Shown here piece after piece: positions 29,703 to 62,146 of a stretch of DNA of 64,000 nt. Location of the stretch: NCBI GenBank assembly GCA_001750645.1, contig MEIF01000228.1, positions 79,322 through 143,321 on the forward strand, given 5' to 3'. Position 1 is the first letter of the stretch; each line of letters begins with the position of its first letter. The notes under the pieces were generated by a model that did not search any database, was not told the origin of the DNA, and saw nothing but the letters and a program-made list of their open reading frames with translations. Both the position numbers and the translations under genes were made by a program. The stretch comes from Gammaproteobacteria bacterium AqS3 (lineage in GTDB: Bacteria; Pseudomonadota; Gammaproteobacteria; MEIF01; AqS3).

Positions 29703-31640
29703 TTATGCAATGTCTACCTCTTCCTCGGCAAACCAGTCATTTCTCAAGACGTAATCTTTCACCTTGTCGGGGTTTTCAGCATAAGCCACCAAAGCCAGGC
29801 TGCTTTTGCTGCGGCTGCAGGCAACATAGAAAAGCCGCCGGGTTCGATCAATTGAGCTGTCTCTGCCCTCGTCAAGGTTGCTTATGTCAGTCCGCGAATA
29901 CGCCCTGTCGCCGAGCAGCTTGCCGTAGCTGAACATGAAGCCGCGCGACTCGGAATCGTCCATGATCACCATGACACGCTCAAACTCCAAGCCCTTCACG
30001 CCTTGGTGGGTGTCAAACGCTGTCAGCCCGTCAATATATTTCTGATAGATGTCGATCTCGGAGAATGGAGCCTCCAAGAAGGAAAGCACGGCTGCTGTGC
30101 GTTCATCAAGCGGATCGGCTTGCATGTCTTCCTGGGAGGAGTCCGCAGAGCTGTCTAAGACCGCGTGGGCAGACAGCAAGACCTCTGGGATCTCGAACAA
30201 TTCGTGTTCAAGAATGCAGCGCAAAACGTCGGCGCATGTCGGTGTGCCTTTGCCGCAAAGCGACATCAGGGCATCAACGCCGGCCTGAGCCTGCATCATC
30301 AATTGCTTTGGGTCGGAAGCCTCTTTGAGAGCGTCTCGAGTCAACAGCGGAGACGACTGCCGGATCAGCCTGAAAACTGTGAATCGGTCGTTTTTCTGTT
30401 GGGCCTGAACAAGCGGAAAAGCCAATTGAGTGAAGAACCGAAGCAGGGGGAGGCTGCCATCGAGCAGTCCGGTGCGCCAGCCATCGATTTTGTAGAGAGG
30501 CTTGAAGACCGCTTCAAACTTCAGGCGCCTTGCAGCCATGTGATGCTCAAGCGTGAGAATCTTGCACTGATCTCGATTGCCCCAGCCGGCATCACCGGAA
30601 TATTCAGCCATTTGGCTTCGGATATCCTCTTCGATTGCCGTATGGTCTGTTACATCGGCGCGTCGGATAAACAGCCTCACCTTCCCATTAAGTGCATCCG
30701 ATCTGGCTTCCTGAGTGTGCTCATCCGCTGTCTCCCGAATCTTATTGATGAGTCGCACAACCCGCTTGGGGCAGCGATGATTGAGTCTTTTGGAGGGCCT
30801 TCCCCAACGCTCGGGAAGCTCCTCTTCGATATGCTCTTTGCCGTCCTGATAAATTCGCTGCATGACATCGCCGATCAGTCCCAGGCAAAACCGGTCTGAA
30901 TGCCTTTGATCAACCGTGAAGAGGGCGCCAATCAGATGGCGGTTGGTGTCCTGACTTTCGTCAATTAGCAGGATGGGAAATCGACCAACCAGTATCCAGC
31001 CCATGAGGGGTTTCTGAGATAGAAAATCTGCGCAGATTTGAATGACTTCTGCATGGTTGAGTGCATTGGATTCGGAGTTTTCACCGTTGGGGCTGTAGAT
31101 GAAAGACTGAATGGCATCAAGCCGCTCTAACTGCTTTCCTTTGGATTTGATTTTGGCTTGCCGTTCTATCGATGCCTTGGTTCTAGAGCGGCCTTTATCT
31201 TCCTTTATTTGGAGTTCATCTATTTCCTCTTGCAAATTTTTGCGGAGCCATTCTCTAATGTCGTGATCAAAACCCTTAATCAGCTCCCAGGCAAAGCTGT
31301 GAATGGTCGCTACGTAGAAGAGAGGATGGGAATCTGTCCGCCGAATGATTTCATCACGGGCGGCATTGGTATAGGTGATCACACCGACACGATGGCCGTG
31401 CAATGTCAGTTCGCGTTCATATTTTGAGCGAATATGATCCAGTGAATTGACCAAGGTCCGCGTCTTTCCTGAGCCGGCACCTGCAAAAAGAAAGAAGCTT
31501 CTCGGCTCTTTGGGATTGAGATAGCCGGCGATTTCCTCATCTACGGGGTCGTCTAAGGTGCTGTTTACAGTCAGGGACGGACTAATGGTCATGGCCTTTT
31601 TGAGGCTTTGTATCTTCAGCTGGCTTTGGATTAACGACAC
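29703..31640 (-). CDS. gajB: UvrD-like SF1 helicase, GajB-like (Gabija-like pair 2); start may be the internal Met near 31592
   Basis: Walker A FLFAGAGSGKTRTL, motif II LLIDESQD, C-terminal VACSRSKSSL. Paralogous to the 15129..17006 product. Confidence 0.7.
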   Translation of the reverse strand: MSLIQSQLKIQSLKKAMTISPSLTVNSTLDDPVDEEIAGYLNPKEPRSFFLFAGAGSGKTRTLVNSLDHIRSKYERELTLHGHRVGVITYTNAARDEIIRRTDSHPLFYVATIHSFAWELIKGFDHDIREWLRKNLQEEIDELQIKEDKGRSRTKASIERQAKIKSKGKQLERLDAIQSFIYSPNGENSESNALNHAEVIQICADFLSQKPLMGWILVGRFPILLIDESQDTNRHLIGALFTVDQRHSDRFCLGLIGDVMQRIYQDGKEHIEEELPERWGRPSKRLNHRCPKRVVRLINKIRETADEHTQEARSDALNGKVRLFIRRADVTDHTAIEEDIRSQMAEYSGDAGWGNRDQCKILTLEHHMAARRLKFEAVFKPLYKIDGWRTGLLDGSLPLLRFFTQLAFPLVQAQQKNDRFTVFRLIRQSSPLLTRDALKEASDPKQLMMQAQAGVDALMSLCGKGTPTCADVLRCILEHELFEIPEVLLSAHAVLDSSADSSQEDMQADPLDERTAAVLSFLEAPFSEIDIYQKYIDGLTAFDTHQGVKGLEFERVMVIMDDSESRGFMFSYGKLLGDRAYSRTDISNLDEGRDSSIDRTRRLFYVACSRSKSSLALVAYAENPDKVKDYVLRNDWFAEEEVDIA

Positions 31641-33900
31641 CCAAACTCTCTTGCTGGTTATTTAGTTGCTTAATCAGCCACCGTAGCCCTTCACGAATAT
31701 AAGAAGGCGGCTGTAATTTTATGGGTTCTGAGATATATAGAAGATCAAGTGCGAATTCTGCTTTTCCTCCAGCTTCCAATGCTTGAAATATTTGGTTGCG
31801 CAATGCTTCTAGATCAGAGCTTGTATCAATTGCTGTCTTAAATTTCTCCCCTAGGCTGTTACTTGGAAGATGATTTTGAAAGAGTTTTAGGTTCTCCATT
31901 ATCAATGCGTCTTCAAAAGTGTTGCACAAGGCCTCTTCGCGCTTTCCTTTAAATTCCACGCTGACTGGCCGTTGGTATGCGACGCGAATGGAAAAATGCT
32001 GGCTTTCATATTTTTTACTCTTTAACTTTTCATCAAGATCCAAGAGGACATCCAGTTCTTCAACACCGGGACACCACGACTTGAGGGTGTAGTTGCGTGT
32101 TTTAAGGCTGCTATCGCGCCTTGGTATTTCTTTTGCTCGGTCTGTGTTAGAAGCATCAAGATCGGTGATGATGAGAGTTGTCAGGCCCAGGTGTTCAACC
32201 AAATCTTTGAACCTATGAGCATGACTTCCGCCAATCTCAAGCCATGAGATGTAGCACTGCTGCAAAGCATTGAGTTCTGGCTGGTGTTCGACAAAGAACG
32301 GAATCAAGATTCTTTCAGCCGGGCCTTCCACAAATACCGCCGCATCGGCAAAAAGCAGGTCACAGTGAGTCACCTTGATATATCGAGTGACAAAGCGCTT
32401 GGTCTCATCTTCTGCCCCGAATATATTACTCAGATTGATGACGCATGAGAGGGGAACAGATGCTGCATCGATGGGAAGACGGCGAAAATATCGCAGGTCA
32501 TCAAATTCACATTCATGGGCGATATGGCTGGAGTGCGTGCTCACGATCACCTGGGTTTTCAATTCCTCTGATTGCCCTAATTCACTGTGGCTTCGAAGAA
32601 ATTTATAGGCCTGTCTGATAAATACCTGTTGAACCTGTGTGTGAAGGTGGGCTTCAGGTTCTTCAATGAGCACAAGATGCAAAGGCGGAATATGCACATC
32701 AGATTCTTCCTCTGATTGAATATTGGCTTTGCCAACGCGCATCCGCGCATCGCGAAAGCTCATTAACCGGAAAATCATGGATATAAGGTTTTGATAACCC
32801 AGACCGTTGGAGTCTTCAGGGAGGCTAAGTTCAACTGTGTTCCCGTCATCTTGTGTGGTTACAGCATATTGGACGGCAGTGGGATGATTAAGACCATCAA
32901 CCGGCTTGATGCGTGTGGAAATTTTGAGCTTTGGATCGGTGATGCCCGGATACCCCATTTTTTCCACTTCTTGGATGGCTGCTGAGAATCCATTCATAAG
33001 TTTCTCATCAAAAGTCTCTTGAGCCGTTTTGATGGCAGCCAACGCTCTGATGTCTTGTTCGCTTGAATGTTTAAGCGGGTCGAGGTGCCTATTCCAATAG
33101 CGCTGAAGTTGATGGGACATGCGCCGACTGGAGCTTGATCCGGCAAGTGTGCCGTCATCATCGGGATCGCCGGACTCAGTGGTTTGGCCAAAACCCCGCT
33201 GGGCGCCGATCTCATCAATTTGGATGAGACCTTTGAGGGGGTTGCTGCCGATGGGCTCTGCGTTATCTGGCAGCGGTTGAGGCTGTGACTCGCCACGATC
33301 AGCCTTGCTGAATTTTGCGGGATCAAGAATGTACGCCTCAATGGAGAAGAGGTCGCTCAATCTGCGCTTTAGAAAATCGGTAAGTGAAAGGGGCCAAAGC
33401 AAATCTGATAGATCACCTTCAGTTCGTTTCTTGGTCGTTTCCAAAGAATGCGATTGGGCACGAGCGACTACATAGGCCTTTTGGAGTTTGGATTCGTCTT
33501 TCGGTTGAAGCCGAAAGCGAACGCCAAGCCGTCCGCCATCCCAATCAAGCGTCGGGATTATCTTTTGGACTAAATGAGCCTCTTCCTTGTCGGCGTGAAG
33601 CCAGACATCCAGAAAGGGCAGGATGGGGGCCCAATCGGGCTCAGGAAGAGGCTGATCTTCTGTATTCGCCCTCTCCCAGGCAGCCCCCATTTCGTCAATT
33701 TTCGGCCAATTGGACAGCGTGAAGTCATCGAGAGAAAAAGGATTTCTGCCTTTTTCGATAAGAAAGTACTGAAGGGCGCGCATTGCCGAAGTCTTTCCGC
33801 TGTTATTCGCCCCGACAAAAACTGTGGTCTCCCCAGAAAATTCGATCCGCACTGATTTGAGCTTTCTAAAATTTGCAATCTCAATACATTCAATGTGCAT
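31582..33900 (-). CDS. gajA: OLD-family ATPase + TOPRIM nuclease, GajA-like (Gabija-like pair 2)
   Basis: Start chosen at ATG 33900 (AGGGAA RBS; aligns with the N-terminus of pair 1). GANNSGKTS Walker A, LVLIEEPEAHLHTQVQQVFIR, STHSSHIAHE, TOPRIM VFVEGPAERILIP ... LIITDLD. Confidence 0.75.
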   Translation of the reverse strand: MHIECIEIANFRKLKSVRIEFSGETTVFVGANNSGKTSAMRALQYFLIEKGRNPFSLDDFTLSNWPKIDEMGAAWERANTEDQPLPEPDWAPILPFLDVWLHADKEEAHLVQKIIPTLDWDGGRLGVRFRLQPKDESKLQKAYVVARAQSHSLETTKKRTEGDLSDLLWPLSLTDFLKRRLSDLFSIEAYILDPAKFSKADRGESQPQPLPDNAEPIGSNPLKGLIQIDEIGAQRGFGQTTESGDPDDDGTLAGSSSSRRMSHQLQRYWNRHLDPLKHSSEQDIRALAAIKTAQETFDEKLMNGFSAAIQEVEKMGYPGITDPKLKISTRIKPVDGLNHPTAVQYAVTTQDDGNTVELSLPEDSNGLGYQNLISMIFRLMSFRDARMRVGKANIQSEEESDVHIPPLHLVLIEEPEAHLHTQVQQVFIRQAYKFLRSHSELGQSEELKTQVIVSTHSSHIAHECEFDDLRYFRRLPIDAASVPLSCVINLSNIFGAEDETKRFVTRYIKVTHCDLLFADAAVFVEGPAERILIPFFVEHQPELNALQQCYISWLEIGGSHAHRFKDLVEHLGLTTLIITDLDASNTDRAKEIPRRDSSLKTRNYTLKSWCPGVEELDVLLDLDEKLKSKKYESQHFSIRVAYQRPVSVEFKGKREEALCNTFEDALIMENLKLFQNHLPSNSLGEKFKTAIDTSSDLEALRNQIFQALEAGGKAEFALDLLYISEPIKLQPPSYIREGLRWLIKQLNNQQESLGVVNPKPAEDTKPQKGHDH

Positions 33901-34045
33901 TGTGAAATCATTCCCTGATGACAGTTTCTGTTGAACTGCCGGCACCTGGTTGATAGGGGGGTTGACAGGAAGACGCAAAAACGAGCGAAGCCATGGCTGT
34001 CAGGATGTGAATACGCAGCATTTCATTAGCCCTCCTCAATCCAGC

Positions 34046-34122
34046 TGGCGCGCCCGGCAGGATTCGAACCTGCGACCAACGGCTTCGGAAGCCGCTACTC
34101 TATCCAGCTGAGCTACGGGCGC
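34046..34122 (-). tRNA. tRNA-Arg (anticodon CCG)
   Basis: Reverse complement folds as a canonical cloverleaf: acceptor GCGCCCG/CGGGCGC, D-arm GCTCAGCTGGATAGAGT, anticodon loop TTCCGAA, T-arm GCAGGTTCGAATCCTGC, 3' GCCA. Confidence 0.85.
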
Positions 34123-49704: not shown

Positions 49705-50552
49705 GCTCGACTGTGCGGTGCCAGGCTGCTCTGTTGGTGCTGCTGATCTGCACCGCAGCGGCGGCGCCTGCCGCCAGAGCGGAGCCGGCCAGCCTGCCGA
49801 GTGAGGCGCGCATTCCCGGCGGCATCGCCCTGATCGAACTGCCCAGCAGGCGCATCGCCCGCCGGGCGACCTTTCAGGATCGCCCGGTGCTCGCCGTCGG
49901 CCGCACCGCCGTGGTCGCGATCCCGCTGAACACCGCCCCTGGCGACTACGCCCTCAAAAGCGGCAAGCGCGAGTATCGGTTCAGCGTGTCCGAGCATGTC
50001 TACCCCGAATCGCGCATTACCTTGCAGGGTGAAAAGCGCGAAATGGTCGACGTCCCCGAGGAGCGCCTGGTGCGCATTCGCTCCGATCATCGCGCCATTC
50101 GCGGGGCTTATGCCACCCGGGACGAGAATGTTCCGCTGCTGCGCCTGAACCTGCCGGCCGAGGGGCCCTGGTCATCGCGCTACGGCCTCAAGCGCTTCTT
50201 CAACGGCAAGCAGCGCAGCCCGCACACCGGCCTGGACATCGCCGCCCCCACCGGGACCCCCGTCTACGCCGCCGCCGCCGGCGAGGTTGTCGCCAGCGAT
50301 GACTACTACTTCAACGGCCACACCGTCATCGTCCACCACGGCGGCGGACTGGTCACGCTGTACTGCCACCTCAGCGAGCGGCTGGTTGAGGCCGGTGCGA
50401 CAGTTGAGGCCGGCCAGCTGATCGGCAGAGTCGGCTCCAGCGGCCGGGCCTCAGGTGCGCATCTGCACTGGAGCGTCAGCCTCAGCAACGTCCGCGTCGA
50501 CCCCGAGCTGTTTGTGGATCCCGAGGTTCGAGCGGCACAGTCTGCGGATTAG
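49701..50552 (+). CDS. M23-family peptidase (LytM/NlpD-like), secreted
   Basis: Signal peptide. M23 motifs HTGLDIAAPTGTPVYAAAAG and HLHW. Confidence 0.75.
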   Translation: MSSTVRCQAALLVLLICTAAAAPAARAEPASLPSEARIPGGIALIELPSRRIARRATFQDRPVLAVGRTAVVAIPLNTAPGDYALKSGKREYRFSVSEHVYPESRITLQGEKREMVDVPEERLVRIRSDHRAIRGAYATRDENVPLLRLNLPAEGPWSSRYGLKRFFNGKQRSPHTGLDIAAPTGTPVYAAAAGEVVASDDYYFNGHTVIVHHGGGLVTLYCHLSERLVEAGATVEAGQLIGRVGSSGRASGAHLHWSVSLSNVRVDPELFVDPEVRAAQSAD

Positions 50553-50690
50553 CGAATGGCGGTATGCGGCTGAAGTTTGATGGGTGCGGACTTGAAATGT
50601 TGAAAGGGCATACCATATAAGGCCCAGATGAGTTGGTCGGGGCCTGGGCTTGTTCAGGTTCCGCAGTTTTGAATCATGGAGGACGCTGTT

Positions 50691-51257
50691 ATGTCTGATG
50701 ACGGTACCAAGGGCAAATTTACTGCCCGCATTAAATGTGATGATCGCGAATGCCGCGTGGCGTGCGACACACAAAACCCCGCTGTTCGAGAAATTTTGGA
50801 TAAAGCCGCAGAGAGTGACCTTCTGCGGCCGTCGGACAATATCGACGACTTTGAGCTGGTGGACGAGCAGAATGGCAGACAGATTGACGGCGATGAAGTT
50901 GACATAGCTGAAAATCCCAATTTGGTTCTTCGGCCCAAAAAGCCTGAGCTGCCGGATTCAGAAAAACCGGAAGAGACAGACAAATCGAAGCCGCCCGCCC
51001 CTCCCGTCCCGCCCTTCCAAGGGCCTTACAAATTTCAAGTCAACGGCCAGGAAATGGAAAGCGATCAGGAAAAATTGAAGGCATCGGAGATTATCCGGCT
51101 GGCTCAGGACAGGGGCTTTGCCAGTTCGGGCAAGCCGGAAGAATTCGTCCTGCAGGTGTCGGGCGAGGATAAGGAATTCAAATACGATGAAACTGTCGAT
51201 TTAAGCCGGGATAATGCTTTTCTGATCATTCCGAGAAAGCCCACCCCTGTTGCATAG
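50691..51257 (+). CDS. Tandem beta-grasp (ubiquitin-like) protein: two ~75-aa Ubl-like modules joined by a K/P/E-rich linker; no C-terminal Gly-Gly
   Basis: GGAGG RBS 8 nt before ATG 50691. Secondary-structure-like periodicity of two beta-grasp modules (KFTARIKCDD...LVLRP and YKFQVNGQEM...FLIIPRK). First gene of a coupled E2 / JAB-E1 cassette. Fold assignment is an inference. Confidence 0.4.
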   Translation: MSDDGTKGKFTARIKCDDRECRVACDTQNPAVREILDKAAESDLLRPSDNIDDFELVDEQNGRQIDGDEVDIAENPNLVLRPKKPELPDSEKPEETDKSKPPAPPVPPFQGPYKFQVNGQEMESDQEKLKASEIIRLAQDRGFASSGKPEEFVLQVSGEDKEFKYDETVDLSRDNAFLIIPRKPTPVA

Positions 51258-51649
51258 TGATGGACGAGTGCCTGGAGCGAATCTTTGAGGAACTGAAGGG
51301 TCTGGGCTATGACCCTTATTACGCGGACTGGCCGCAGGGGAAAAAGGTGGTCATCAAATACAGGATTCTCACGGGCAAATACGCCAATCAAACGGTCTTG
51401 CTGGGGGTCTCAAACCCGGATGGCCCCTATCCTGAATACCCTCCGCATTGGATTCACATTAGCCCGCTGCACGACGATGGATTGGGAGGGCCAGTAGAAA
51501 TCTATTCAAGTGAAAATGAAAAGGGGCAGACCTGTGAATGGGGCGCATTGAGCCGCCCTCCTCGCGATATTTGGGATCAGCTGCCGGAAAAAAGCATGAA
51601 GTCATTTCTTAATGAACATGTTGGCCGCTTTTGCAAAGCCCTGAAGTGA
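51257..51649 (+). CDS. Prokaryotic E2 (UBC-like) conjugating enzyme candidate
   Basis: 130 aa. HPN-like segment YPPHWIHISP followed by a conserved Cys (GQTCEWG). Start overlaps the upstream stop. Overlaps the downstream E1 gene by 19 nt. Confidence 0.5.
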   Translation: MMDECLERIFEELKGLGYDPYYADWPQGKKVVIKYRILTGKYANQTVLLGVSNPDGPYPEYPPHWIHISPLHDDGLGGPVEIYSSENEKGQTCEWGALSRPPRDIWDQLPEKSMKSFLNEHVGRFCKALK

Positions 51650-53124
51650 ATATATACGAGGCAGTCTTTTTGGGCGAGACCAATGAAGAAATATGCGCTC
51701 ACTTATTGCAGCACTTCAACAAGGGGGAGTATCAGGAGGATCTTTGCTTTGCCCTTTGGCGCCCCAGCACGGGTCAAAATCGCTACAGCGCTTTGATTTA
51801 CAAAGCCATTCTCCCCCATGAGGGTGAAAGAAACCTCCATGGAAATGTGGAGTTCAATCCAAATTATTTGTCCCGCGCCATTAACCTGGCCTGCCGGGAG
51901 GGTGCAGGACTTGCCTTTATGCACAGCCATCCGTCCGATGGCTGGCAGGCCATGAGCCAGCCGGATGTCGTCGCTGAAAAGGAGGCGATTTTTTATCCGG
52001 CACAGGCCACACAATTGCCGTTGCTGGGGTTAACGGTGGGAACCGACGGTTATTGGAGCGCTCGATTTTGGATCAGGGAGGGCAGGAAAAATCAGATTCA
52101 TTGGTGTCAAAAGGTCCGGGTGGTCGGCGAGAAAAAATATCAGCTCTACCATAACGATGCCCTTGCACCCGCTCCGAAGAGAAGAAATATCCTGCGGAGA
52201 ACTTATGACACCTGGGGGGCAGAAAAGCAGAACGATATTGCGCGTCTCAAGATCGGCGTGGTGGGCTTGGGCAGTGTCGGCTGCATTGTTGCCGAGGCGC
52301 TCGCCCGAGGCGGCATTCAGGAAATTGTTCTGATCGATCCGGATCGGGTGGAGGAGCACAATCTGGATCGGCTGCTGTATGGAACGCAGAGCGAGATCGG
52401 CCAATATAAAGTGGACGTGGCTGAGAGGCGCCTCCGGCTCAATTCCACCGCAGAGAGGGTTGCCGTTCAAAAAATCCCGCTCTCCCTCCGCGATGAGCGG
52501 GCTTATCTGGCGGCGCTGGACTGCGATCTCCTGCTGAGCTGTGTCGACCGTCCGGTTGCCAGGGATGTGCTTAATTTCATTGCCTTTGCGCATTTGATAC
52601 CGGTGATTGACGGGGGCATTGCCATTGAGCATGCGGAAAATCTGGATTCATTCTTTGCCCATTGGAGGGCGCACCTTGTCACCCCATACCACCAGTGCAT
52701 GCGCTGCAATGGCCAGTACACGACCAGTGACGTGTCTGTGGAATTGGATGGATCGCTGGACAACCCTGCCTATGTCAGCAGTCTGCCGCCCGAGGAGCGG
52801 GGCCGCAACCAGAATGTTTTTCCGTTCAGCCTGCATGTTGCAGCCATGGAAGCCGGCGCCATGTTTCGGTACTTGGTGGCGCCTGATTGGTGGCCTCCGG
52901 TTCAGCAGCAGGACTATGATTTTTTAAGGGGTACGACAACCATTCAGAACGACAAGTGCAGGCCACATTGCGTATTTCAAAATGAGCGAATTGCCCGGGG
53001 CGATGCAATCAACCCCAATCTCAAAAGCCTGATTATTCGGACAGGTGAACCAGACAGAGACGAACGGAAAAGCTGGCTCCGCGGTTTATTGTCTAAATTC
53101 ACCAGAGCTTTCGGTAAGGAATAG
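51631..53124 (+). CDS. JAB/MPN metalloprotease domain fused to E1-like (ThiF/MoeB) adenylyltransferase (TTG start)
   Basis: N-terminal JAMM motif E...HSHPS...S..D (FMHSHPSDGWQAMSQPD). C-terminal Rossmann KIGVVGLGSVGCIVAEALARGGIQEIVLIDPDRVEEHNLDR. Cys pairs CMRCNG ... CRPHC. Confidence 0.75.
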   Translation: MQSPEVNIYEAVFLGETNEEICAHLLQHFNKGEYQEDLCFALWRPSTGQNRYSALIYKAILPHEGERNLHGNVEFNPNYLSRAINLACREGAGLAFMHSHPSDGWQAMSQPDVVAEKEAIFYPAQATQLPLLGLTVGTDGYWSARFWIREGRKNQIHWCQKVRVVGEKKYQLYHNDALAPAPKRRNILRRTYDTWGAEKQNDIARLKIGVVGLGSVGCIVAEALARGGIQEIVLIDPDRVEEHNLDRLLYGTQSEIGQYKVDVAERRLRLNSTAERVAVQKIPLSLRDERAYLAALDCDLLLSCVDRPVARDVLNFIAFAHLIPVIDGGIAIEHAENLDSFFAHWRAHLVTPYHQCMRCNGQYTTSDVSVELDGSLDNPAYVSSLPPEERGRNQNVFPFSLHVAAMEAGAMFRYLVAPDWWPPVQQQDYDFLRGTTTIQNDKCRPHCVFQNERIARGDAINPNLKSLIIRTGEPDRDERKSWLRGLLSKFTRAFGKE

Positions 53125-54034
53125 AGGAGGCCACAAATCTTGGCCCTCTCAAACCTTTTTGCTTGCCCAGCTGCTCAAACAGTGTCCGCACTCTTTCCAG
53201 GTCCGGCACTCGGGGCCCGATCGTAATGATGCTTCCGCTTTGCAAAAGATTTTTGGTCTTTAGGGCATCTGTGTCAACATATTTCCTTATGTGAGATGTA
53301 GCCGGTTTATAGTCAAAGGAGTGTTCTTTCTCCCCTATATCTTGATATGGAATTAAAATTCGACTTTCTCTTTCATGCTTATAGGCGCTATCCTTGTATA
53401 AAAATCGCAAAACAACAAAATACTCCAAAATTTCTTCGATAAAGGCGTTTTTATTCTCCTCACTCAACTTATCTTTCCAATAACCCTTATATCTTTGCAG
53501 GATTCCCCCAAACTCTTCCGCGCATTTCTCGAGGGCTCTTTTTTCATAGGCTACTTTGTATATTTTTTCCGGCCTGATAATTTTAGGTAAAGCTATAGAG
53601 CAGCCCAGCCCATCCTGCCCGTATGATTGCCAATACATCAGCTCATCTTCAACACCCTTTTTTCCCCCTATGAAGGAGCATGAAAACGGGGGGTTTTTTC
53701 TGGGAGTGATTATTTCTTCGGGCAATTCATATTTTTTTTGAATTTCGTTGAGGAAATATTTTCCTTCATTGGGATCATTCGTGGCTGAAATATCGTAACA
53801 CCTTAATCCCCTGCTCTCATGGTGCGGGGGTTCATCTGTCTCGCAGGGAAGATTATTGAGCATTGAATAAACTGTTTCCATATTGGTGTAATGAACAAAA
53901 TATTCCAGACTTTCGTCAGTGTCGGTCACGAGATAATTATCAGCAAGATAATGATCTATTGACCCTCGAATCTCTGCCATCAAGGCCTTCCAATCCAGAG
54001 TGCCGGGTTCCAGCTTATTTGCCATCGTGATCAC
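53099..54034 (-). CDS. Hypothetical protein, DUF2971-like (tentative), convergent with the Ubl cassette
   Basis: Motifs FVHYTNMETVYSMLNN ... LRCYDISATNDPNEG fit my recollection of DUF2971 (HYT ... NDP.E). Same low-GC island. Confidence 0.35.
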   Translation of the reverse strand: MITMANKLEPGTLDWKALMAEIRGSIDHYLADNYLVTDTDESLEYFVHYTNMETVYSMLNNLPCETDEPPHHESRGLRCYDISATNDPNEGKYFLNEIQKKYELPEEIITPRKNPPFSCSFIGGKKGVEDELMYWQSYGQDGLGCSIALPKIIRPEKIYKVAYEKRALEKCAEEFGGILQRYKGYWKDKLSEENKNAFIEEILEYFVVLRFLYKDSAYKHERESRILIPYQDIGEKEHSFDYKPATSHIRKYVDTDALKTKNLLQSGSIITIGPRVPDLERVRTLFEQLGKQKGLRGPRFVASSIPYRKLW

Positions 54035-54092
54035 CCCAATAAAGCAAAATCAACGGCGGATTATACCGGGCATATTCGCCGCTTTGGCTGAC

Positions 54093-55259
54093 CTACCGCC
54101 CTGCCCTCAGACTCCATTTCTCGGCGCCCCATTGCAGCAGGATCAGCGCTGTGAGGACATTGCTGAAGAAGAAAAATCTCAGCGACAGATCGTGAAGCAA
54201 TACGATGTGGGCGGCGGCGAACAGCACGGCGGCCATCAGAAAACCGTTCTCGCTTTTCCAGAAATTTCCTTGGCGAAAATTCTGGATCAATTTATAGCCA
54301 ACCACTCCAAGCAAAACCAGGCGAAACAGGGTTCTGCGCCAAGCCGCAAGGATGTATTCAATGGTCCTCGCGTAGGGCGGCCAGTAATCGGAGAGCTGGG
54401 CTGAGATCGGAATGTCTCCGCCGCCGGCAAAAACACGCAGCAGCTCAGGTGTGTTATGCACGATGAATATGAAATTGAACAGGGCCAAATATCCGGGATG
54501 TTCGGAGAGGGTATTCGCCATCAAATAAGAGAGCAATGCCCCGGCATAAGCCAGATACTCCCACTTGGGCGATGCCTTTTGACTGTTTCTGACTTTGACC
54601 CAGTCGTCGCACAGCTGCCAGAGCATTAGCAGGGTGATGAAAATAATAAAATTGGTGCGAATCAATGGCAGCAGCACAATCAGAGCCAGCGCCCAATTCC
54701 GCCTTTTATTCCAGCACAGCACAATTCCCAAGGCGGCCACTGCGGCCAGCAAATCCGGGGTGGCAAGGGCGGCCACTTTGGGGAGCTGGAACACCAGCAG
54801 CGCAACCGGAAAAAGCGCGAATATGCGCCAGTTGCTGCCCAGCAGCGCCCCGCCAAACAGCAGGGCAAAAACGGCTCCGGCCAGTGCGCCAGTCAAGGCG
54901 ATGGCTGAACTGATGGTGTCGGTGAATAGCGACAGCGCCCGCACCGTCGCCAGATACAGATATCGGCCCTGATAAAACGCAACTTGGCGCTCGAAAAATT
55001 GCGGATCTTGGTGCGTCAATGTTCGGTACAAAATATCTTCTGTCAGCTCTCGCCACTTTTCATCATCAACGCTGGCCCGCACATCTGCATAAGTGGCCTC
55101 GTGCAGCTGAGCTCCGCGCGCACCCTCGAGATGCAAAATGGATGCGGTGTAGCCGATCATGTCCCAATTTTGGCGAGGATTCACCAAGCCGTTGGCCAGA
55201 ACCAGGGCGGAGAAAATCAGGATCGTCAGAGCCTGCCAGGGGTGTTGTTTGAGAATCAA
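54093..55259 (-). CDS. Polytopic inner-membrane protein, last gene of the arabinose-like operon; candidate GT-C-type arabinofuranosyltransferase (inference from position)
   Basis: ~10 predicted TM helices. 4-nt overlap with the dprE2-like gene. Occupies the aftA position of the mycobacterial Rv3789-Rv3792 cluster. Confidence 0.4.
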   Translation of the reverse strand: MILKQHPWQALTILIFSALVLANGLVNPRQNWDMIGYTASILHLEGARGAQLHEATYADVRASVDDEKWRELTEDILYRTLTHQDPQFFERQVAFYQGRYLYLATVRALSLFTDTISSAIALTGALAGAVFALLFGGALLGSNWRIFALFPVALLVFQLPKVAALATPDLLAAVAALGIVLCWNKRRNWALALIVLLPLIRTNFIIFITLLMLWQLCDDWVKVRNSQKASPKWEYLAYAGALLSYLMANTLSEHPGYLALFNFIFIVHNTPELLRVFAGGGDIPISAQLSDYWPPYARTIEYILAAWRRTLFRLVLLGVVGYKLIQNFRQGNFWKSENGFLMAAVLFAAAHIVLLHDLSLRFFFFSNVLTALILLQWGAEKWSLRAGR

Positions 55260-56011
55260 AATCGAATTCTTTTGAATAGAGCTTCAGGCAGGTGGCGCAT
55301 GATCCACATGATCGGCGCCCAAAGCTTCCCGACGTAGATCCGGTTTTTGCACCGCAGCACGCTGCGGTATATCGCCCGGCCGACCGCTTCGGGGGAGGCG
55401 GTCAACGGCTTGGGCGTTTGCAGATGGCTGATCATTTTGGTGGCGACAAATCCGGGCAGAACGGTCACAACATGCACGCCGGAACCGACCAGGCGCGCGC
55501 GCAGCCCGGACAGGAATGCGGTGAAACCGGCTTTGGCGGAACCGTAAATGTAATTGGATGCCCGTCCCCGATCACCGGCGACCGAGCTGACACCGACCAG
55601 CGCGCCGGAGCCGCGCTGTGCAAAACGTCCGGCCAACGCCTCCAGGATTTGCGCCGGCCCCTCGTAATTGGTTCGCATGATGCGGACGGCATCGGCGGGA
55701 TGGGCTTGATCATGCTCCTGGTCGCCCAGAGCGCCGACGCAGCAGATCGCAGCATCGGGCAGCTCCGGCAGGGCCTCAATAAAGCGGAGGTGGTCCGATA
55801 TGGCCAGGACATCAAATTCACACAGCGTCACTGAGACGCCGAACTGTTCTTCGAAAAACCCTCTGTTTTCCTGCAGGGTTTCGGCATTTCTGGCCGCCAG
55901 CTGCAGGTTCCAGCCGGCCCGGGCAAAAACCTCTGCGGTCGCCAGGGCGATGTTCGAGCGCGCCCCCAGCAGCAGCACGACGGGTCGGCGATCAGAGGGG
56001 TTTGAACTCAC
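55256..56011 (-). CDS. Short-chain dehydrogenase/reductase, DprE2-like
   Basis: TGxxxGxG-type Rossmann VVLLLGARSNIALATA. YxxxK region. ATGA overlap with the DprE1-like gene. Confidence 0.7.
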   Translation of the reverse strand: MSSNPSDRRPVVLLLGARSNIALATAEVFARAGWNLQLAARNAETLQENRGFFEEQFGVSVTLCEFDVLAISDHLRFIEALPELPDAAICCVGALGDQEHDQAHPADAVRIMRTNYEGPAQILEALAGRFAQRGSGALVGVSSVAGDRGRASNYIYGSAKAGFTAFLSGLRARLVGSGVHVVTVLPGFVATKMISHLQTPKPLTASPEAVGRAIYRSVLRCKNRIYVGKLWAPIMWIMRHLPEALFKRIRF

Positions 56012-57342
56012 AGCCCCAGTCGCTCCGATTGCATTGAGGAAAACCGCTCCGCCGCAGAGCAGCTGGATCGGAACTGCCGGAACGCCTCCAGCCGGTGTTC
56101 ACTCCGGGCAAACGACTGCGCACTCATGCGCGCGTCTTTGGCCAGGTAAAAATGCCCGCCGCAGGACAGCACGATTTCATCCAGCTGATTCAGCAGTTTC
56201 AGCACCCCGGGGGTCGCCGGAAAATCCAGCGCCAAGGTGTAGCCAGACATCGGAAAAGACAGGGTATTTTCGGCGCCATCTTTTTTTCCGGATCCGAAGC
56301 GCTTGAGCACGGACAAAAACGAACCCTGTCCGCTGGATGCAATGGCTTGCAGCAATTCGGCGAGTCCGGCTCGGGACTGCTCCAGCGGCAGCACACACTG
56401 AAACTGAACCAGCTTTGCGGAGCCGTACAGGCGGTTCCAGTTATGCAGCGCATCAAGCGGGTAAAAATAGCGATCCCAGTCGATCCATTGTGCCCGCCCG
56501 CCGGCGTGAAAATAAAGGGCATTGAAAGCCTTCAGCGTCAGGCGATTCAGGGTGATTTTGGGCAGATTGAACGGCACCGAAAGATGGCTCCGCCCGGGAA
56601 CATCGAAGGGCCGCCTGCCCAGCGAATCCGGCAGCTCATCTCGGCGGGCATGCTCCCCCAGAAGCAGCACCGAACGCCCCAGATGAGCTCCGCAGCCGAG
56701 GCTGTCAATCCAGGCGACCGAATAGGTGCTGTCGTCATGCGCGTCAAAGGCATCCAGAGTCTCCCCAAGGTTTTTTGAGCGAATGCATTTTTGTCGAATC
56801 CAGCCGGTTTCGACCGGCTGCAGCCTCACCGCCAGGCGCGCGATGATGCCGGTCAGCCCCATTCCGCCGAGGGTCCACTCAAACAGCCGGGGGTTTTCGC
56901 TGGGGGATGCGCGGATGAGGCGGCCATGCGCATCGATCAATTCGATCCATTCAACGAAACGGCCCAGCGAGCCGACTCGGTGATGATTTTTTCCGTGTAC
57001 ATCGGCGGCAGCCATTCCGCCCAGCGTGACAAATTTGGTCCCCGGCGTCACCGGAAAAAACCATCCATGCGGCAGAAACTGCGCAATAAGATCACCGAGC
57101 ATCGCACCGGCCTCGGCAGTGAGCAGACCGCTGTCCTGCTCAAAGCTCAGCACCCGATTCAATCGCCGCATATCGATGGTGCAGGCAGGATTGATCGCAC
57201 TGTCACCGTAGGCCCTTCCGCAGCCCCTGGCGATCAGTGAATCGCCGCTTCGGACAAGCCGGATGAGCTCTTGCTCTGATGCGGGTGCATGCACCTGGCA
57301 GTCCCACTCCTGAAAGCGACCCCAGCCATGAAGCTTGGTCAC
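56008..57342 (-). CDS. FAD-dependent oxidoreductase, DprE1-like (decaprenylphosphoryl-beta-D-ribose 2'-oxidase family)
   Basis: GWGR, RGCGRAYGDSA, VTLGGMAAADVHGKNHH. GTG start overlapping the GtrA stop (GTGA). Colinear with mycobacterial DprE1. Confidence 0.8.
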   Translation of the reverse strand: MTKLHGWGRFQEWDCQVHAPASEQELIRLVRSGDSLIARGCGRAYGDSAINPACTIDMRRLNRVLSFEQDSGLLTAEAGAMLGDLIAQFLPHGWFFPVTPGTKFVTLGGMAAADVHGKNHHRVGSLGRFVEWIELIDAHGRLIRASPSENPRLFEWTLGGMGLTGIIARLAVRLQPVETGWIRQKCIRSKNLGETLDAFDAHDDSTYSVAWIDSLGCGAHLGRSVLLLGEHARRDELPDSLGRRPFDVPGRSHLSVPFNLPKITLNRLTLKAFNALYFHAGGRAQWIDWDRYFYPLDALHNWNRLYGSAKLVQFQCVLPLEQSRAGLAELLQAIASSGQGSFLSVLKRFGSGKKDGAENTLSFPMSGYTLALDFPATPGVLKLLNQLDEIVLSCGGHFYLAKDARMSAQSFARSEHRLEAFRQFRSSCSAAERFSSMQSERLGL

Positions 57343-57746
57343 TGCACCGCCCGGGTTGTGAATACATAGTGTTTGTCGAGAAAATATTTGGTCACATATC
57401 CCGCAGCCAAGCCCAGCACGGCGCCCATTTCGCGCATGACATGCGTTCCCCAGATTGACCAAAACAGGGATTCGGTCAGCCAGAACAGCAGCGTGGGCGG
57501 GATGCCCATCGCCGAATACAGCAGGAACTTTCGGCTGTTGCCGCGCAGCGTCAGCTCGCGGTCGGAAAATATCCACCACTTGTCGAGGACAAACTTCAGA
57601 ATCAGTCCGGCGGCGGTGCCGCAGATCAGGGCTGCGATGAATCCCGGGCGGTCGGGGATGTAAAACAGCACGGCGCGCTGCGTCGCCAGATTGGCCAGCA
57701 CGGCCAGCAGGCAGAAAAGCGAATATTTCACGGCCAGAGTTGTCAA
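57339..57746 (-). CDS. GtrA-family small membrane protein (putative polyprenyl-phosphate sugar flippase), TTG start
   Basis: 135 aa, 4 TM. TTG overlaps the UbiA stop (TTGA). Same position as Rv3789 relative to dprE1. Confidence 0.6.
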   Translation of the reverse strand: MTTLAVKYSLFCLLAVLANLATQRAVLFYIPDRPGFIAALICGTAAGLILKFVLDKWWIFSDRELTLRGNSRKFLLYSAMGIPPTLLFWLTESLFWSIWGTHVMREMGAVLGLAAGYVTKYFLDKHYVFTTRAVQ

Positions 57747-58555
57747 GGCAGCGCTCCGGCCAGGCCCAGCGTACCGATGATCGCCAGGCAGATCAGGCTG
57801 GGTCGGTCGCGGATGGCAAACACCACCGGGTCGTCGTGCATCTCGCCCCTCAGCGTCAGCATCGCCAAGCGGGTAAACCAGTACAGCATCACCAGGCAAA
57901 CCCCCCAGAGCAGCTCCGGATGCGAGTACAGCAGCGTGACTTCGGGAGAATTGATGTAGAGCACCAGCACCAGAATGGCGATGTATCCCGAGGCGATGGC
58001 CACCATGGACAGGACGGGTCGGTCGCTGATCAGATAGGCTCTCCCGGGAACCTGAACCTCGCTGCGGCCGTATAAGTCGATCAATTCGGCCAGGCGCTTG
58101 AGCACCGCCAGAGCCAGAAAAATGAACATTGAAAAAGCCAGCAGCCAGAGGGAGACGTCAATCTCGCCGGCCGCACCGCCGCAAATGATGCGCAGCGTGT
58201 AGAGCAGGCTCAGTGCGGCGATGTCCAGCACCAGCTGACGCTTGATACCGCAGGAATACGAAATGGACAGCAGCGCATAGATCGCGGCGACCAGCCCGGT
58301 CGGCGTGTTGACCGAGAAGGCCAGAAGCAGGCCGGCAGCCACCAGGGACGGCGGCAGCCAGAGACCGTGTGCAATGCGCAGCTGGCCAGAGGCAAATGGT
58401 CGACCGCTCTTGCGCGGGTGGGAGCGGTCGGCGGAAAGATCCAGCAGGTCGTTGAAAAGATAAATTCCGGAGGCGATCAGGCAGAACGCTGCAAATGCCT
58501 CGAACACCGGCAGCCCCGCCGCCGGCGTCAATTGATGCCCGAGCACCATCGGCAC
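57743..58555 (-). CDS. UbiA-family prenyltransferase, DPPR-synthase-like (polyprenyl-phosphate 5-phosphoribosyltransferase)
   Basis: Asp-rich motif FNDLLDLSADRSHPRK, second motif region, 7-8 TM. N-terminus looks short; the ORF is in the same frame as the upstream HAD gene, separated only by TAG. Confidence 0.7.
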   Translation of the reverse strand: MPMVLGHQLTPAAGLPVFEAFAAFCLIASGIYLFNDLLDLSADRSHPRKSGRPFASGQLRIAHGLWLPPSLVAAGLLLAFSVNTPTGLVAAIYALLSISYSCGIKRQLVLDIAALSLLYTLRIICGGAAGEIDVSLWLLAFSMFIFLALAVLKRLAELIDLYGRSEVQVPGRAYLISDRPVLSMVAIASGYIAILVLVLYINSPEVTLLYSHPELLWGVCLVMLYWFTRLAMLTLRGEMHDDPVVFAIRDRPSLICLAIIGTLGLAGALP

Positions 58556-58615
58556 GAATATCAGAAAATTCTTCAGCCATTGATGCGGGCGCAGTGCGCG
58601 CAGTGCGGCGCGGAT

Positions 58616-59212
58616 CTACGCAGGCGGATTTTTGAGGTGCTGAACCTGAATGCCCGGGATGCCCTCCACCTGGCGGCGCAGCCGGTGCGATGCCCCCACC
58701 GTAATGGCGGCCGCAGACCGGCGCCAGACCGGCAGATCGCGGCGGTGATCGCCGACGTAGGCAAATCGCTCGCTGCCGTAGCGCCCGGCCAGAAATTCGG
58801 CCTTGCGGTGTCCGGACAGGTTGAGTTTTCCATCGGAGGCGTACACCTCGTCAAAGATCTCCAGATGATCGGCCACGGCCTGGGCGCACCGGTGATCGGA
58901 TCCGGTCGCCAGCACAATGCGGGCGCCCTTGGATTTCCACAGCCGCACCAGGTCGAGCACCTCGGTGTTGTAGGGCAGCCGGTCGTAATTGATGGACGAG
59001 TGCGCAGCCAGATGCTGCTTCAGCTGCGGACGCCCGCCCCTCATCAGAGCCCAGAGTGCACTCAGCGGAATATGCCAGCAGCGGGACAGCGAGGAAAAAA
59101 AGCTTTCCGCCAGCAGATCGGTGCGCACCAGACTGTGATCCAGGTCGACCACCAGAATATTCAGATCGGGCGAGGGGCTGACGGGCGTCGGAACCTGATC
59201 GGGTTGATTCAT
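58616..59212 (-). CDS. HAD-superfamily phosphatase
   Basis: Motif I VVDLDHSLV (DxDxT/V type), motif III K, motif IV GDHRRD. Confidence 0.6.
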   Translation of the reverse strand: MNQPDQVPTPVSPSPDLNILVVDLDHSLVRTDLLAESFFSSLSRCWHIPLSALWALMRGGRPQLKQHLAAHSSINYDRLPYNTEVLDLVRLWKSKGARIVLATGSDHRCAQAVADHLEIFDEVYASDGKLNLSGHRKAEFLAGRYGSERFAYVGDHRRDLPVWRRSAAAITVGASHRLRRQVEGIPGIQVQHLKNPPA

Positions 59213-59364: not shown

Positions 59365-62146
59365 TTGATGAATCTGTCGTGGAATGAGATTCGCCATCGG
59401 GCAGGAAAATTTTCCGATGACTGGAGAGATGCGCATTATGAAAAAGGCGAGACTCAGAGTTTTTATAACGATTTCTTTCAGATTTTTGGACTGCAGAGAA
59501 GAAGTGTCGCCCGCTATGAGCAGCATGTCCAAAAATTAGGCGACCAGGCCGGCTTTATTGATCTGTTTTGGCCTGGCACACTGCTGGTTGAGCAAAAGAG
59601 CGCCGGTCGCAATCTTGAAAAAGCCAGGGAACAGGCGGGAGAATATTTTGACGGATTGCCCGACCACCAGCGCCCCCGCTACATTCTTTTGAGCGATTTC
59701 CAGACTTTTGAATTGCATGATTTGGAGGAGAAATCTGGAAATATCTGTTTTGAGCTTGCAAATCTGCACGAACATGTCGAGAAATTCAGCTTTATGATCG
59801 GGATTCAGCGCAGGGTTTTTCGCGATCAGGATCCGGTCAATATTTATGCAGCCGAGCAGGTCGGCAGACTCTATGACGCCCTCAAGCATGCGGGCCATGC
59901 CGAATATGACCTGGAGCGATTTTTGGTGCGCATTGTGTTCTGTCTTTTCGCCGACAACACCGGCATTTTTGAGTCCAGGCACAGCCTGCTTGACTTTATC
60001 GAAACGAGGACCCGGGAGGACGGCTCTGATCTGGGACAGCAATTGGCGCAATTATTCGAGGTCCTGGACACGCCCCCAGACAAGAGGGCCGGCACTCTGG
60101 ATGAAGATTTGGCTAAATTTCCCTATGTTAACGGAGAGCTTTTTAGGGATCATTTGAGAATATTTTCCTTTGATTCAAGAATGCGCAAAATGCTGCTGGA
60201 GGTCTGCCATTTCAATTGGTCCAACATATCGCCGGCCATATTCGGGGCACTGTTCCAATCGGTGATGGATCCGGAGATGCGCCGCACGCAGGGAACTCAT
60301 TACACGACCGAGCAGAATATTCTGAAGGTGATCGAGCCGCTGTTCATGGATGATTTGCGGGCGGAGTTTCAAAGGCTGAAGTCTCTTCGCAGGGGGCGCA
60401 TTCGGGCTCTCAGGCATTTTCAGAAAAAATTGGGGACCATGAAATTTCTGGACCCCGCATGCGGCTGCGGCAACTTTCTCATCATCGCCTATCGGGAATT
60501 GCGCCAGCTGGAAATTGAGGTGCTCAGAGAGATCTATCCCAAAGCCCAGGGTGTCCGGCAGTCGGCGTTATCCGTGCAGATTTTGTCGCTGATCGACGTC
60601 GACCAGTTCTACGGAATTGAAATCGGGAAATTCCCTGTTCGCGTTGCCGAAACGGCGCTGTGGATGATGGACCACATCATGAACAACAAGCTCAGCATTG
60701 AATTTAGCAAGAACTATGCGCGCATCCCGCTTGAGAAATCACCCTCTATTTTTCAGGGCGATGCGCTGGAAAATGATTGGGCTGATGTGCTCCCTCCCAA
60801 AGAGTGCTCCTTTGTATTGGGCAACCCCCCTTTTGCCGGATCAAAGCTTCAATCCGCCGAGCAGCGGATTCAGGTGCGTCAGATTGCAAGGGGGGGGAAC
60901 GCTCGATTACGTCTCGGCCTGGTTTGTTAAGGCTGGCGAGTACATAAAACGCTGCAATGCTCGAATGGGCTTTGTTGCGACCAATTCGATCACTCAGGGC
61001 GAGCAGGTGGCGCAATTGTGGCCAATCCTTTTCGATAGATGCAAACTGGAAATTAGCTTTGCGCATCGCACTTTTGCCTGGGGCTCGGACGCGCGCGGCA
61101 AGGCAAATGTGCATGTCGTGATTTTGGGCTTGGACAACTGTGAGAAAGCGCCAAAGGAAAAACGCCTGTTTAACTATCCCGATATTCGCGGCCAACCGGA
61201 AGAGAGCAGCCCCAAGGCGATATCGCCTTATTTATTTGATGCCGGTGATTTGTCTGATCCGCACACCGTGATCACAGAGGAAAGCCAGTCGATCAATGGA
61301 ATGAGCAAATTGGTTATGGGCTCCAAGCCCATCGATGGTGGGCACTATATTTTCAGCGAGACAAAACGTGACAACTTTCTCAAACTGGAACCGGGAGCAG
61401 AAACATTTCTCCGCCCCTATATCGGCGCTCGGGAATTTTTGCAGGGAGAGAAACGATGGATTTTGTCCCTGCATAACGCCTCTCCGGAACAATTGGCGCA
61501 CCTGCCGAATGTGAAAAAAAGAATCGCTCGGGTTCGCGCTTATCGAGAAGCGAGCAGAAGTTCACCAACGCGGAATTTGGCGGAAACGCCGAGGCTTTAT
61601 CACCTCAATGTGATTCCTGAAAAACCTTTTCTATTTATCCCAAGAGTAAGTTCACAGCGTCGCGAATACCTTCCCATTGGCTGGCTGGAGCCTCCTATCA
61701 TTCCCAGTGATGCGGCGCTTATTTTGGAAAATGCCACGCTGACTGACTTTGCCCTGCTGATCTCTGCAATGCATAACGCATGGCTGCGTCAGATAGGCGG
61801 TCGTCTGAAAAGCGACTATCGCTACTCGGCGGGTTCTGTTTACAACACCTTTCCGATGCCGCCTGCGACGGCAAAACTTGAAAAACTGGAGCCCCTGGCT
61901 CAGGCGGTGCTGGATGCCCGAGCCGCTCATTCAGGCTCAACGCCGGCCAATCTATATGATCCTGACCTGATGCCCGGTGACCTGCACCAAGCCCATAAGA
62001 ATCTGGACCGGGCCGTTGACCGCCTCTACCGCCGCGGCGGGTTTGCATCGGAGCACGAGCGCATCGGTCATTTGTTTGAGCGCTATGAAAAAGTGCGCAG
62101 TCCGCTGGAGGCGGGGAAGCGCAAAACAAGGCGTCGCCGTCGTTGA
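59365..62146 (+). pseudogene. MmeI-family type IIL restriction-modification enzyme (nuclease + gamma-class N6A methyltransferase + TRD in one ~925-aa polypeptide), interrupted by a frameshift at a G8 tract
   Basis: N-terminal D-X9-E-X-K nuclease motif (IDLFWPGTLLVEQK). Motif I DPACGCGNFL. Motif IV LGNPPFAGS. Downstream frame continues TLDYVSAWFVKAG ... C-terminal LFERYEKV. Reading frame 1 switches to frame 2 across gggggggg at 60910-60917. Confidence 0.75.
60910..60917 (+). repeat. Homopolymeric G8 tract inside the MmeI-like gene; 7 or 10 G would restore the frame
   Basis: Sequence ttgcaa-gggggggg-aacgc. Frame analysis done by hand. Confidence 0.85.

Follow-up and report, generated by a model that had tools for sequence, protein, structure and literature searches.

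The Type I Bub operon (formerly 6E.1/DUF6527) consists of BubAB, BubCD and BubE (Ye, Gong, Chambers & Corbett, bioRxiv 10.1101/2024.11.21.623953; Iyer et al. 2006, row 6e), and Bub (6E) pathways conjugate their ubiquitin-like protein (Ubl) by oxyester chemistry, with JAB cleavage of BubAB also having been shown; the pathways are poorly understood, and no phage-defence phenotype has been obtained for them. DUF2971 has been described separately: a 2025 survey predicts it to be an H-Y-E-clade ADP-ribosyltransferase (ART) that has a conserved Tyr, an ExE motif and large helical inserts, and likens it to DarT, AbiGi and Tox-ART-HYD1 (PMC12522546), and Aristaios, a DUF2971 protein of 316 amino acids, provides phage defence of the abortive-infection type in Lactococcus (PMC11381338). 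Here we analyse a locus that brings relatives of the two together. In a 64,000-nucleotide (nt) stretch of contig MEIF01000228.1 of Gammaproteobacteria bacterium AqS3 (hereafter the window), genes for a Ubl, an E2-like protein and a fusion of a JAB peptidase to an E1 adenylation domain form a cassette on the forward strand, and a reverse-strand gene, which we call ART-like for its predicted fold, converges on the end of the JAB-E1 gene. A sequence-only reading had singled out this last gene as a DUF2971-like possible effector or sensor partner of the cassette; the Bub-type identity of the cassette and the ART prediction for DUF2971 go beyond that proposal.

That the four genes form a conserved, functionally linked module is strongly supported, and we put at roughly 0.55 the probability that they constitute a single anti-phage or stress system in which an ART-like effector would be placed under Bub-like Ubl control. 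The searchable literature treats DUF2971 only as a predicted ART (PMC12522546) and as a single-gene abortive-infection system (PMC11381338), and Bub only together with BubE. Our literature search found no system combining Bub with an ART or DUF2971 with a Ubl, though many subscription-journal papers lie outside its coverage and absence from it is not proof; within that literature, a Bub-like pathway with an ART-like fourth component is undescribed.

The linkage is carried by comparison across loci. In every informative distinct locus, the window included, the ART-like gene is convergent to a JAB-E1 gene (21/21, whichever of the ART-like protein, the E2 and the E1 served as the seed). In the six relatives, other than the protein itself, recovered by the first search, the ART-like gene converges on and abuts or overlaps a ThiF gene of 473-504 amino acids, which is preceded by genes of 128-130 and 79-156 amino acids in 5/6 (the contig of the remaining relative, L001, ends inside ThiF). 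The same arrangement recurs in three loci from Bdellovibrionales metagenome-assembled genomes found by a genome scan, whose narrow patterns explain why there are only three; in four more distant members of the family (28-33% identity), which lie on contigs of megabase length; in five distinct loci from a metagenome scan seeded with the E2, in which a further contig is uninformative as it ends 216 nt after the E1; and in two E1-seeded loci. Among informative loci we found no cassette without an ART-like gene and no close clade member without a cassette. Three contigs of ENA ERZ26869290 (L004, L006 and L007) were left out of these counts; they carry multiple partial copies, in tandem or inverted, of both the ART-like and the JAB-E1 gene, which are most likely an artefact of long-read assembly and not a real amplification.

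The two genes usually share their 3' ends, overlapping by 23-38 nt in 10 of the 12 other loci measured; the exceptions are L005, where the overlap is 0 nt, and L012, where a gap of 88 nt separates them. For the window itself, the convergent orientation had been read correctly from the sequence alone, but the overlap is 26 nt and not 25. Pairwise identity matrices from 17 loci are congruent, with Mantel r of 0.86 between the ART-like protein and JAB-E1 and 0.90 between the ART-like protein and the E2 (p<=2e-4), which demonstrates co-inheritance as a unit and not physical co-evolution. Across the same loci, ART-like proteins are on average 36% identical to one another, E2 proteins 53% and JAB-E1 proteins 61%, making the ART-like protein the fastest evolving of the three. 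At least 206 representatives of the ART-like clade are found at E<1e-30, alongside more than 3,000 close relatives of JAB-E1. The conserved co-occurrence with E1, E2 and JAB genes on which the suggestion of functional linkage depended is therefore borne out, both by the 21/21 loci, which is far more than chance would give, and by the Mantel correlations.

Base composition also sets the block apart. Guanine-cytosine (GC) content is 42.3% in the ART-like gene and 51.7-53.9% in the Ubl, E2 and JAB-E1 genes, compared with 54.7-68.3% in the neighbouring genes measured and 59.9% in the window as a whole. The block is therefore compositionally foreign, with the ART-like gene its most AT-rich part; the single low-GC block of the sequence-only reading holds for all four genes, with the nuance that the ART-like gene lies well below the cassette. 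The ART-like gene is 4-13 GC points under its JAB-E1 partner in 13/13 loci irrespective of host GC, for which amino-acid composition, low or silenced expression of a toxic gene, and faster evolution are all candidate causes.

This consistent GC difference, together with an ART-like gene that is encoded on the other strand and has a start region of its own, could be taken to mean that a self-sufficient gene of the Aristaios or PDC-S31 type merely sits beside an unrelated Ubl cassette, all the more since single-gene DUF2971 systems exist and PDC-S31 is itself a single-gene candidate. The comparative data make mere neighbourhood very unlikely: adjacency is kept in all 21 informative loci at ART-like identities down to ~25% and between unrelated flanks, most loci have overlapping 3' ends, the distance matrices agree, and no solitary cassette was found.

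Cassette organisation and comparison with Type I Bub

Among characterised pathways, the cassette resembles Type I Bub (6E.1) most closely, judging by its protein sequences. The best PDB match of the JAB-E1 fusion by phmmer is Citrobacter BubCD (9ea4, E 1.5e-18), to which it is homologous over both domains, query residues 24-333 aligning with chain residues 18-315; Pfam assigns the protein to ThiF (E 6.5e-30), while the PADLOC E1-E2 (Cap2-type) models match only its ThiF core. The JAB motif residues E31, H93, H95, S104 and D107 are intact, in a pattern kept throughout our cassette protein alignment of 13 loci. The E1 part has a GLGSVG loop and a CxxC...CxxxC pattern, of which the CxxC is invariant and lies near Tyr376. 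This tyrosine is likewise invariant, ~54 residues after the VIDGG strand, in a position comparable to that of the catalytic Y370 of BubCD. The start we prefer for the gene, a GTG, overlaps the E2 stop codon as GTGA, whereas the listed open reading frame (ORF) begins at TTG 51631 and encodes 497 amino acids (Table 1).

The Ubl has a weak Pfam match to Multi_ubiq (E 9e-4) and lacks a C-terminal Gly-Gly. Homologous Ubl genes of 77-193 amino acids occupy the same position in 13 other loci and comprise one or two beta-grasp units depending on the locus, as in Type I Bub, and the C-terminal TPVA is invariant in 14/14 sequences. Some relatives share further features with Type I Bub: in L033 (6366-7004) the Ubl is fused to the E2 (...STPVA followed directly by TIPEMSDN...), and in L031 (6127-6627) the Ubl runs eight residues past TPVA as an extended pro-Ubl. 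This fusion and this extension imply maturation of the Ubl by the JAB domain, as for BubAB. A different variation is seen in L016 (9952-10472), which has two tandem single-domain Ubl genes.

The small middle gene is a putative E2 gene, judging by its operon position and YPxxPP signature. Its product has no match in Pfam, NCBIfam or the PDB, the last searched with both the single sequence and a profile, but is 38-57% identical to the product of the same-position gene at the other loci used for comparison. The residues kept without exception are H64, W65, H67, P70, D74, G77, G78, W95, S99, R100, P101, P102, W106 and D107; no cysteine is invariant across 13 sequences, and an E2/RWD-like protein without a conserved cysteine is a further likeness to Type I Bub, as are the mobile and defence-island settings.

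The differences are equally specific. The window module has no BubE/DUF6527 serine protease and carries the opposite-strand DUF2971/ART-like gene instead, PF20137 (BubE/DUF6527) having no match in the window proteins scanned or in the Pfam-annotated genes of those loci that were retrieved with called genes. Unlike in Type I Bub, the Ubl and E2 are separate genes in the window and in most loci, the mature Ubl would end in Ala (TPVA) and not in Gly, the catalytic S-x-H motif of BubB is not recognisable in the E2, and no CapW or CapH/CapP regulator is seen.

Table 1. Genes of the module, their overlap and the candidate motifs of the ART-like protein, in window coordinates.
Feature	Coordinates	Strand	Size	Remarks
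Ubl gene	50676..51257	(+)	193 aa	two beta-grasp-like halves, Pro-rich linker, C-terminus ...PTPVA
E2/RWD-like gene	51260..51649	(+)	129 aa from ATG 51260	YPEYPPHWIH motif; listed ORF begins at GTG 51257
JAB/JAMM peptidase-E1 adenylation fusion gene	51646..53124	(+)	492 aa from GTG 51646	
ART-like gene (divergent DUF2971-superfamily, ART-fold-like)	53099..54025	(-)	308 aa	
Convergent 3' overlap of ART-like and JAB-E1 genes	53099..53124		26 nt	E1 ...FTRAFGKE-stop opposite ART ...PYRKLW-stop
His45-Tyr46-Thr47, candidate ART motif I, strand beta-1	53885..53893	(-)		H45 and Y46 invariant, T47 nearly so
Asn83-Asp84-Pro85-x-Glu87-Gly88, loop after strand beta-2	53762..53779	(-)		
Tyr131-Trp132-x-x-Tyr135-Gly136...Gly141-Cys142-Ser143, candidate motif II (conserved Tyr) and next strand	53597..53635	(-)		
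Lys211...Tyr215...Glu218-x-Glu220-x-Arg222, candidate ExE catalytic motif III, strand start	53360..53395	(-)		

Family and predicted fold of the ART-like protein

The ORF at 53099-54034(-) exists as the sequence-only reading gave it and is the longest for this gene (GTG start, 311 amino acids), but a start at ATG 54025 is probable, being preceded by a Shine-Dalgarno-like GGGGTGA. The resulting 308-amino-acid product is identical to NCBI 'hypothetical protein ISN29_03835' of Gammaproteobacteria bacterium AqS3, a metagenome-assembled genome. In this numbering, the two motifs from which DUF2971 had been recognised by eye, both of which we found in the protein, occupy residues 43-58 (FVHYTNMETVYSMLNN) and 74-88 (LRCYDISATNDPNEG).

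Family assignment depends on how sensitively it is made. The sole Pfam match of the protein is DUF2971 (PF11185; E 0.38), spanning model positions 2-89 of 89; at 12.6 bits it lies under the 22-bit gathering cut-off, so the proposed identity fails by Pfam's own threshold. It holds at the profile-profile level, however: aligned by hhalign to WP_167853061, a Vibrio echinoideorum plasmid protein that scores 43 bits on Pfam DUF2971, the family profile gives a probability of 98.0% (E 2.7e-13, 204 columns), with HYTS, NDPxEG, W..Y..G.G.S, YK..Y.E.E.R and GP motifs in register. A DUF2971 hit was therefore obtained by both routes, the Pfam one weak. When clade members were scanned singly, the weak match recurred in 101/103 (best E 2.3e-5), and PADLOC's candidate single-gene defence family PDC-S31 was matched by 77/103 (best E 9e-9), including weakly by the window protein (E 1.6e-4). 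Because weak Pfam matches and hhalign homology to a bona fide member coincide, we place the ART-like protein, from its sequence relationships, in a divergent clade of the DUF2971 superfamily that falls outside the Pfam family as delimited by that family's threshold.

This clade is larger than simple searches indicate. A word-indexed search with the ART-like protein returned only six relatives at 32-39% identity, whereas a hidden Markov model (HMM) scan with a profile of the protein and six relatives against 1.84 billion cluster representatives (50% identity clustering) returned 3,389 matches at E<=1e-3, 842 at <=1e-10 and 206 at <=1e-30. Among the 120 relatives listed by an 84-sequence profile search, none has a precomputed Pfam domain; together with the hundreds of strong HMM matches, this makes the clade a sizeable unannotated family. 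NCBIfam has no match for the ART-like protein or the Ubl, and PHROGs gave only a weak match of unknown function. The present analysis provides an annotation for a family currently without Pfam or NCBIfam assignment.

Farther members of the superfamily occur without the cassette. A tblastn search of plasmids recovered the DUF2971-annotated gene on Vibrio echinoideorum p1 (E 2e-5) but no E2, and the viral contigs searched yielded only a distant DUF2971-like gene, with no E2 and no module; both relatives stand alone, unlike the ART-like gene of the module. Compared with DUF2971 as known from Aristaios and PDC-S31, the protein shares homologous core motifs, a size of ~260-320 amino acids, an association with defence islands and a predicted ART fold, and differs in its score below the Pfam cut-off and its pairing with the cassette in 21/21 loci.

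An AlphaFold2 model of the ART-like protein improved from a pLDDT (predicted local distance difference test) of 63 with a 7-sequence alignment to 88.8 with 103 sequences, at a pTM (predicted template modelling score) of 0.87. Its structural matches are yeast Tpt1 (7yw4, score 6.8), Thermus DarT (7omv, 6.5), Mycobacterium tuberculosis DarT (7yk3, 6.0), Salmonella SopF (7dn9, 6.0), Escherichia coli DarT1 with NAD+ (8baq, 5.9) and Thermosipho DarTG (7omu, 5.8); the others, in or below the same range, are helical designs and bundles that match the helical inserts of the model. Foldseek searches of the PDB and BFVD with the model gave nothing at E<=0.001, sequence and profile searches of the PDB with the family alignments gave nothing meaningful, and the family profile did not match one DarT sequence in hhalign, a one-sequence template being too weak a test. 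By its structural matches, the predicted fold is closest to the NAD+-using DarT/Tpt1 branch of ADP-ribosyltransferases. The protein is distinguished from DarT/DarTG and Tpt1/KptA by large helical inserts and the absence of sequence-level similarity, and neither a Pfam match to DarT (PF14487) in the protein and its clade nor a macrodomain antitoxin gene in the module was found.

Conservation is highest along the predicted core. Invariant across 103 sequences are H45, Y46, D78, N83, D84, G88, S117, W132, Y135, G136, G139, G141, C142, Y160, L209, K211, E218, E220, R222, Y249, S300 and Y304, a set consistent, as sequence conservation goes, with an active enzyme. In the model, residues 42-47 form a strand, so that HYT sits on beta-1, W..YG precedes a strand and E-x-E opens one; H45, Y135 and E218/E220 lie on or beside predicted strands in the order expected of an H-Y-E ART. 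The NDPxEG loop, which has N83, D84 and G88 in every sequence and P85 and E87 at >=90% conservation, aligns to NDPNEG of the bona fide DUF2971 protein, candidate motif III aligns to its YK..Y.E.E.R, and the Pfam DUF2971 alignment starts at the region of candidate motif II. Entropy is 1.3-1.6 bits in core segments and 2.3-3.1 bits in the variable parts, namely the N-terminal helix, two loops and the helical insert 161-207. We also considered Cys142 as a catalytic residue diagnostic of the clade and dropped it, as the stand-alone relative on a viral contig has G-C at the same place. An ADP-ribosyltransferase assignment is well motivated, but not proven.

The same invariant residues can be read differently. 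With evidence for an ART fold only moderate, and with the ART-like gene placed as the fourth gene of a Bub-like operon from which DUF6527 is missing, the protein might be no ART at all and instead take over from BubE as a hydrolase or deconjugase (using, for example, His45 and Cys142, invariant in 103 sequences), as a non-catalytic adaptor or E3-like specificity factor, or simply be the substrate of Ubl conjugation. We consider such a role doubtful, and return below to the ART-like protein as an effector.

Proposed mechanism of the module

If the four genes act as one system, the ART-like effector would use NAD+ to ADP-ribosylate a nucleic acid or a protein, an activity already suggested for DUF2971 defence proteins that act alone, such as Aristaios. 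Maturation of the Ubl to its TPVA C-terminus would fall to the JAB domain and its adenylation to the E1, after which E1 and E2 would pass it on, probably via non-cysteine (oxyester) intermediates as in Bub. The acceptor of the Ubl might be the ART-like protein itself or else the trigger or target of that protein, and the attachment would turn the effector on or off, in a manner analogous to the control of the CD-NTase (cGAS/DncV-like nucleotidyltransferase) by Cap2/Cap3 in the type II cyclic-oligonucleotide-based anti-phage signalling system (CBASS). In such a scheme the ART-like gene would fill the operon position held by the BubE protease in canonical Bub operons, and the variable N-terminal helix, loops and helical insert, along with faster evolution, fit a phage-facing component.

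Both type II CBASS, through Cap2/Cap3, and Bil (BilABCD) offer parallels, in that E1/E2 and JAB activities regulate or constitute an antiviral output from a compact operon. CBASS differs in conjugating the enzyme's own C-terminus without a separate Ubl, and Bil in its cysteine thioesters, its multidomain E1 and its lack of a toxin-like effector.

A closer chemical coupling can also be envisaged, with the ART-like enzyme and the Ubl machinery acting on the same molecule. In one form, the ART would place ADP-ribose on phage DNA, RNA or protein and E1/E2 would esterify the Ubl onto that ADP-ribose; in another, it would ADP-ribosylate the Ubl, the E2 or the E1 itself and so gate conjugation. Precedents for such coupling are the ubiquitylation of ADP-ribose by DELTEX/PARP9, the ADP-ribosylation of ubiquitin Arg42 by SidE, and CteC. 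Strict co-inheritance of the ART-like gene and the cassette would suit it, as would the oxyester intermediates of Bub, the closest characterised relative, the lack of an invariant Cys in the E2-like protein, the unusual invariant TPVA end of the Ubl, and the lack of a macrodomain or other ADP-ribose eraser in the module. It is, however, drawn by analogy only, and the sequences reveal no link between the two, whether physical or chemical; DUF2971 proteins that stand alone function, or at any rate occur, with no Ubl; and Bub makes Ubl-lysine products in vitro. We judge such coupling unlikely, if somewhat less so than a BubE-type role for the ART-like protein. A full hybrid marking system, in which the Ubl is esterified on ART-written ADP-ribose or ADP-ribosylated Ubl licenses conjugation, has a slimmer chance than either; were it real, it would be a prokaryotic counterpart, perhaps an antecedent, of PARP9/DELTEX and SidE-type crosstalk.

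The module is a widespread Bub-like variant in which BubE is replaced by a predicted NAD+-using ART-like enzyme from a family linked to abortive infection. Under the preferred reading, of an ART-like effector controlled by a Bub-like cassette, Bub pathways would gain a candidate effector, and with it a concrete candidate output, toxicity or ADP-ribosylation, for assaying Ubl conjugation. The module would also join two systems of post-translational and nucleic-acid modification, between which crosstalk has so far been described chiefly in eukaryotes and Legionella.

Genomic setting

The genes flanking the module vary between loci, and defence and mobile functions dominate among them. In L003, L016, L017, L018 and L033 it is embedded in, or directly flanked by, type I restriction-modification (R-M) genes, having been inserted repeatedly into type I R-M operons between hsdM/hsdS and hsdR. 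DarT-Macro genes adjoin it in L016 and L017, and other neighbours are GmrSD in L015, SIR2 in L002, CBASS and several toxin-antitoxin (TA) pairs in L031, and an MmeI-like enzyme and RhuM in L001. The association with defence islands, which the sequence-only reading gave for DUF2971 in general, is thus seen for the module itself. Around the module in the window, a promoter and terminator scan of 50300-54400 gave results at chance level, and the island is not marked by direct or inverted repeats on its flanks, by tRNA genes or by Rfam families.

Several other features of the window are, or may be, of a defence type. About 5 kb from the module, an MmeI-family type IIL R-M enzyme is split into overlapping ORFs at 59365-60930 (+) and 60698-62146 (+), its methyltransferase domain being broken by a frameshift at model positions 165/171; the gene is a pseudogene, carries a sequencing error, or is possibly phase-variable. 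Low-GC blocks contain two separate Gabija-like pairs, at 15129-19060 (-) and 29703-33978 (-), in each of which a UvrD-type helicase comes after an OLD-family AAA_15+TOPRIM ATPase. The position of the second pair, directly beside tRNA-Arg(ccg) at 34046-34122, suggests an integrated islet. At 5069-6139 (+), an isolated kilobase of low GC content (47%) encodes a 356-amino-acid protein with a C-terminal phosphoribosyltransferase domain, which could be another acquired defence-type gene.

The one-strand cluster at 54093-59212 (-) begins with a 388-amino-acid protein that is Pfam-less and apparently hydrophobic by eye, followed in order by a short-chain dehydrogenase, an FAD_binding_4 oxidase, a GtrA-like protein, a UbiA prenyltransferase and a HAD hydrolase. 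We take this cluster to resemble a lipid-linked sugar pathway of the DprE1/DprE2/UbiA type; GC content in the three of its genes that were measured is intermediate, at 55-62%.

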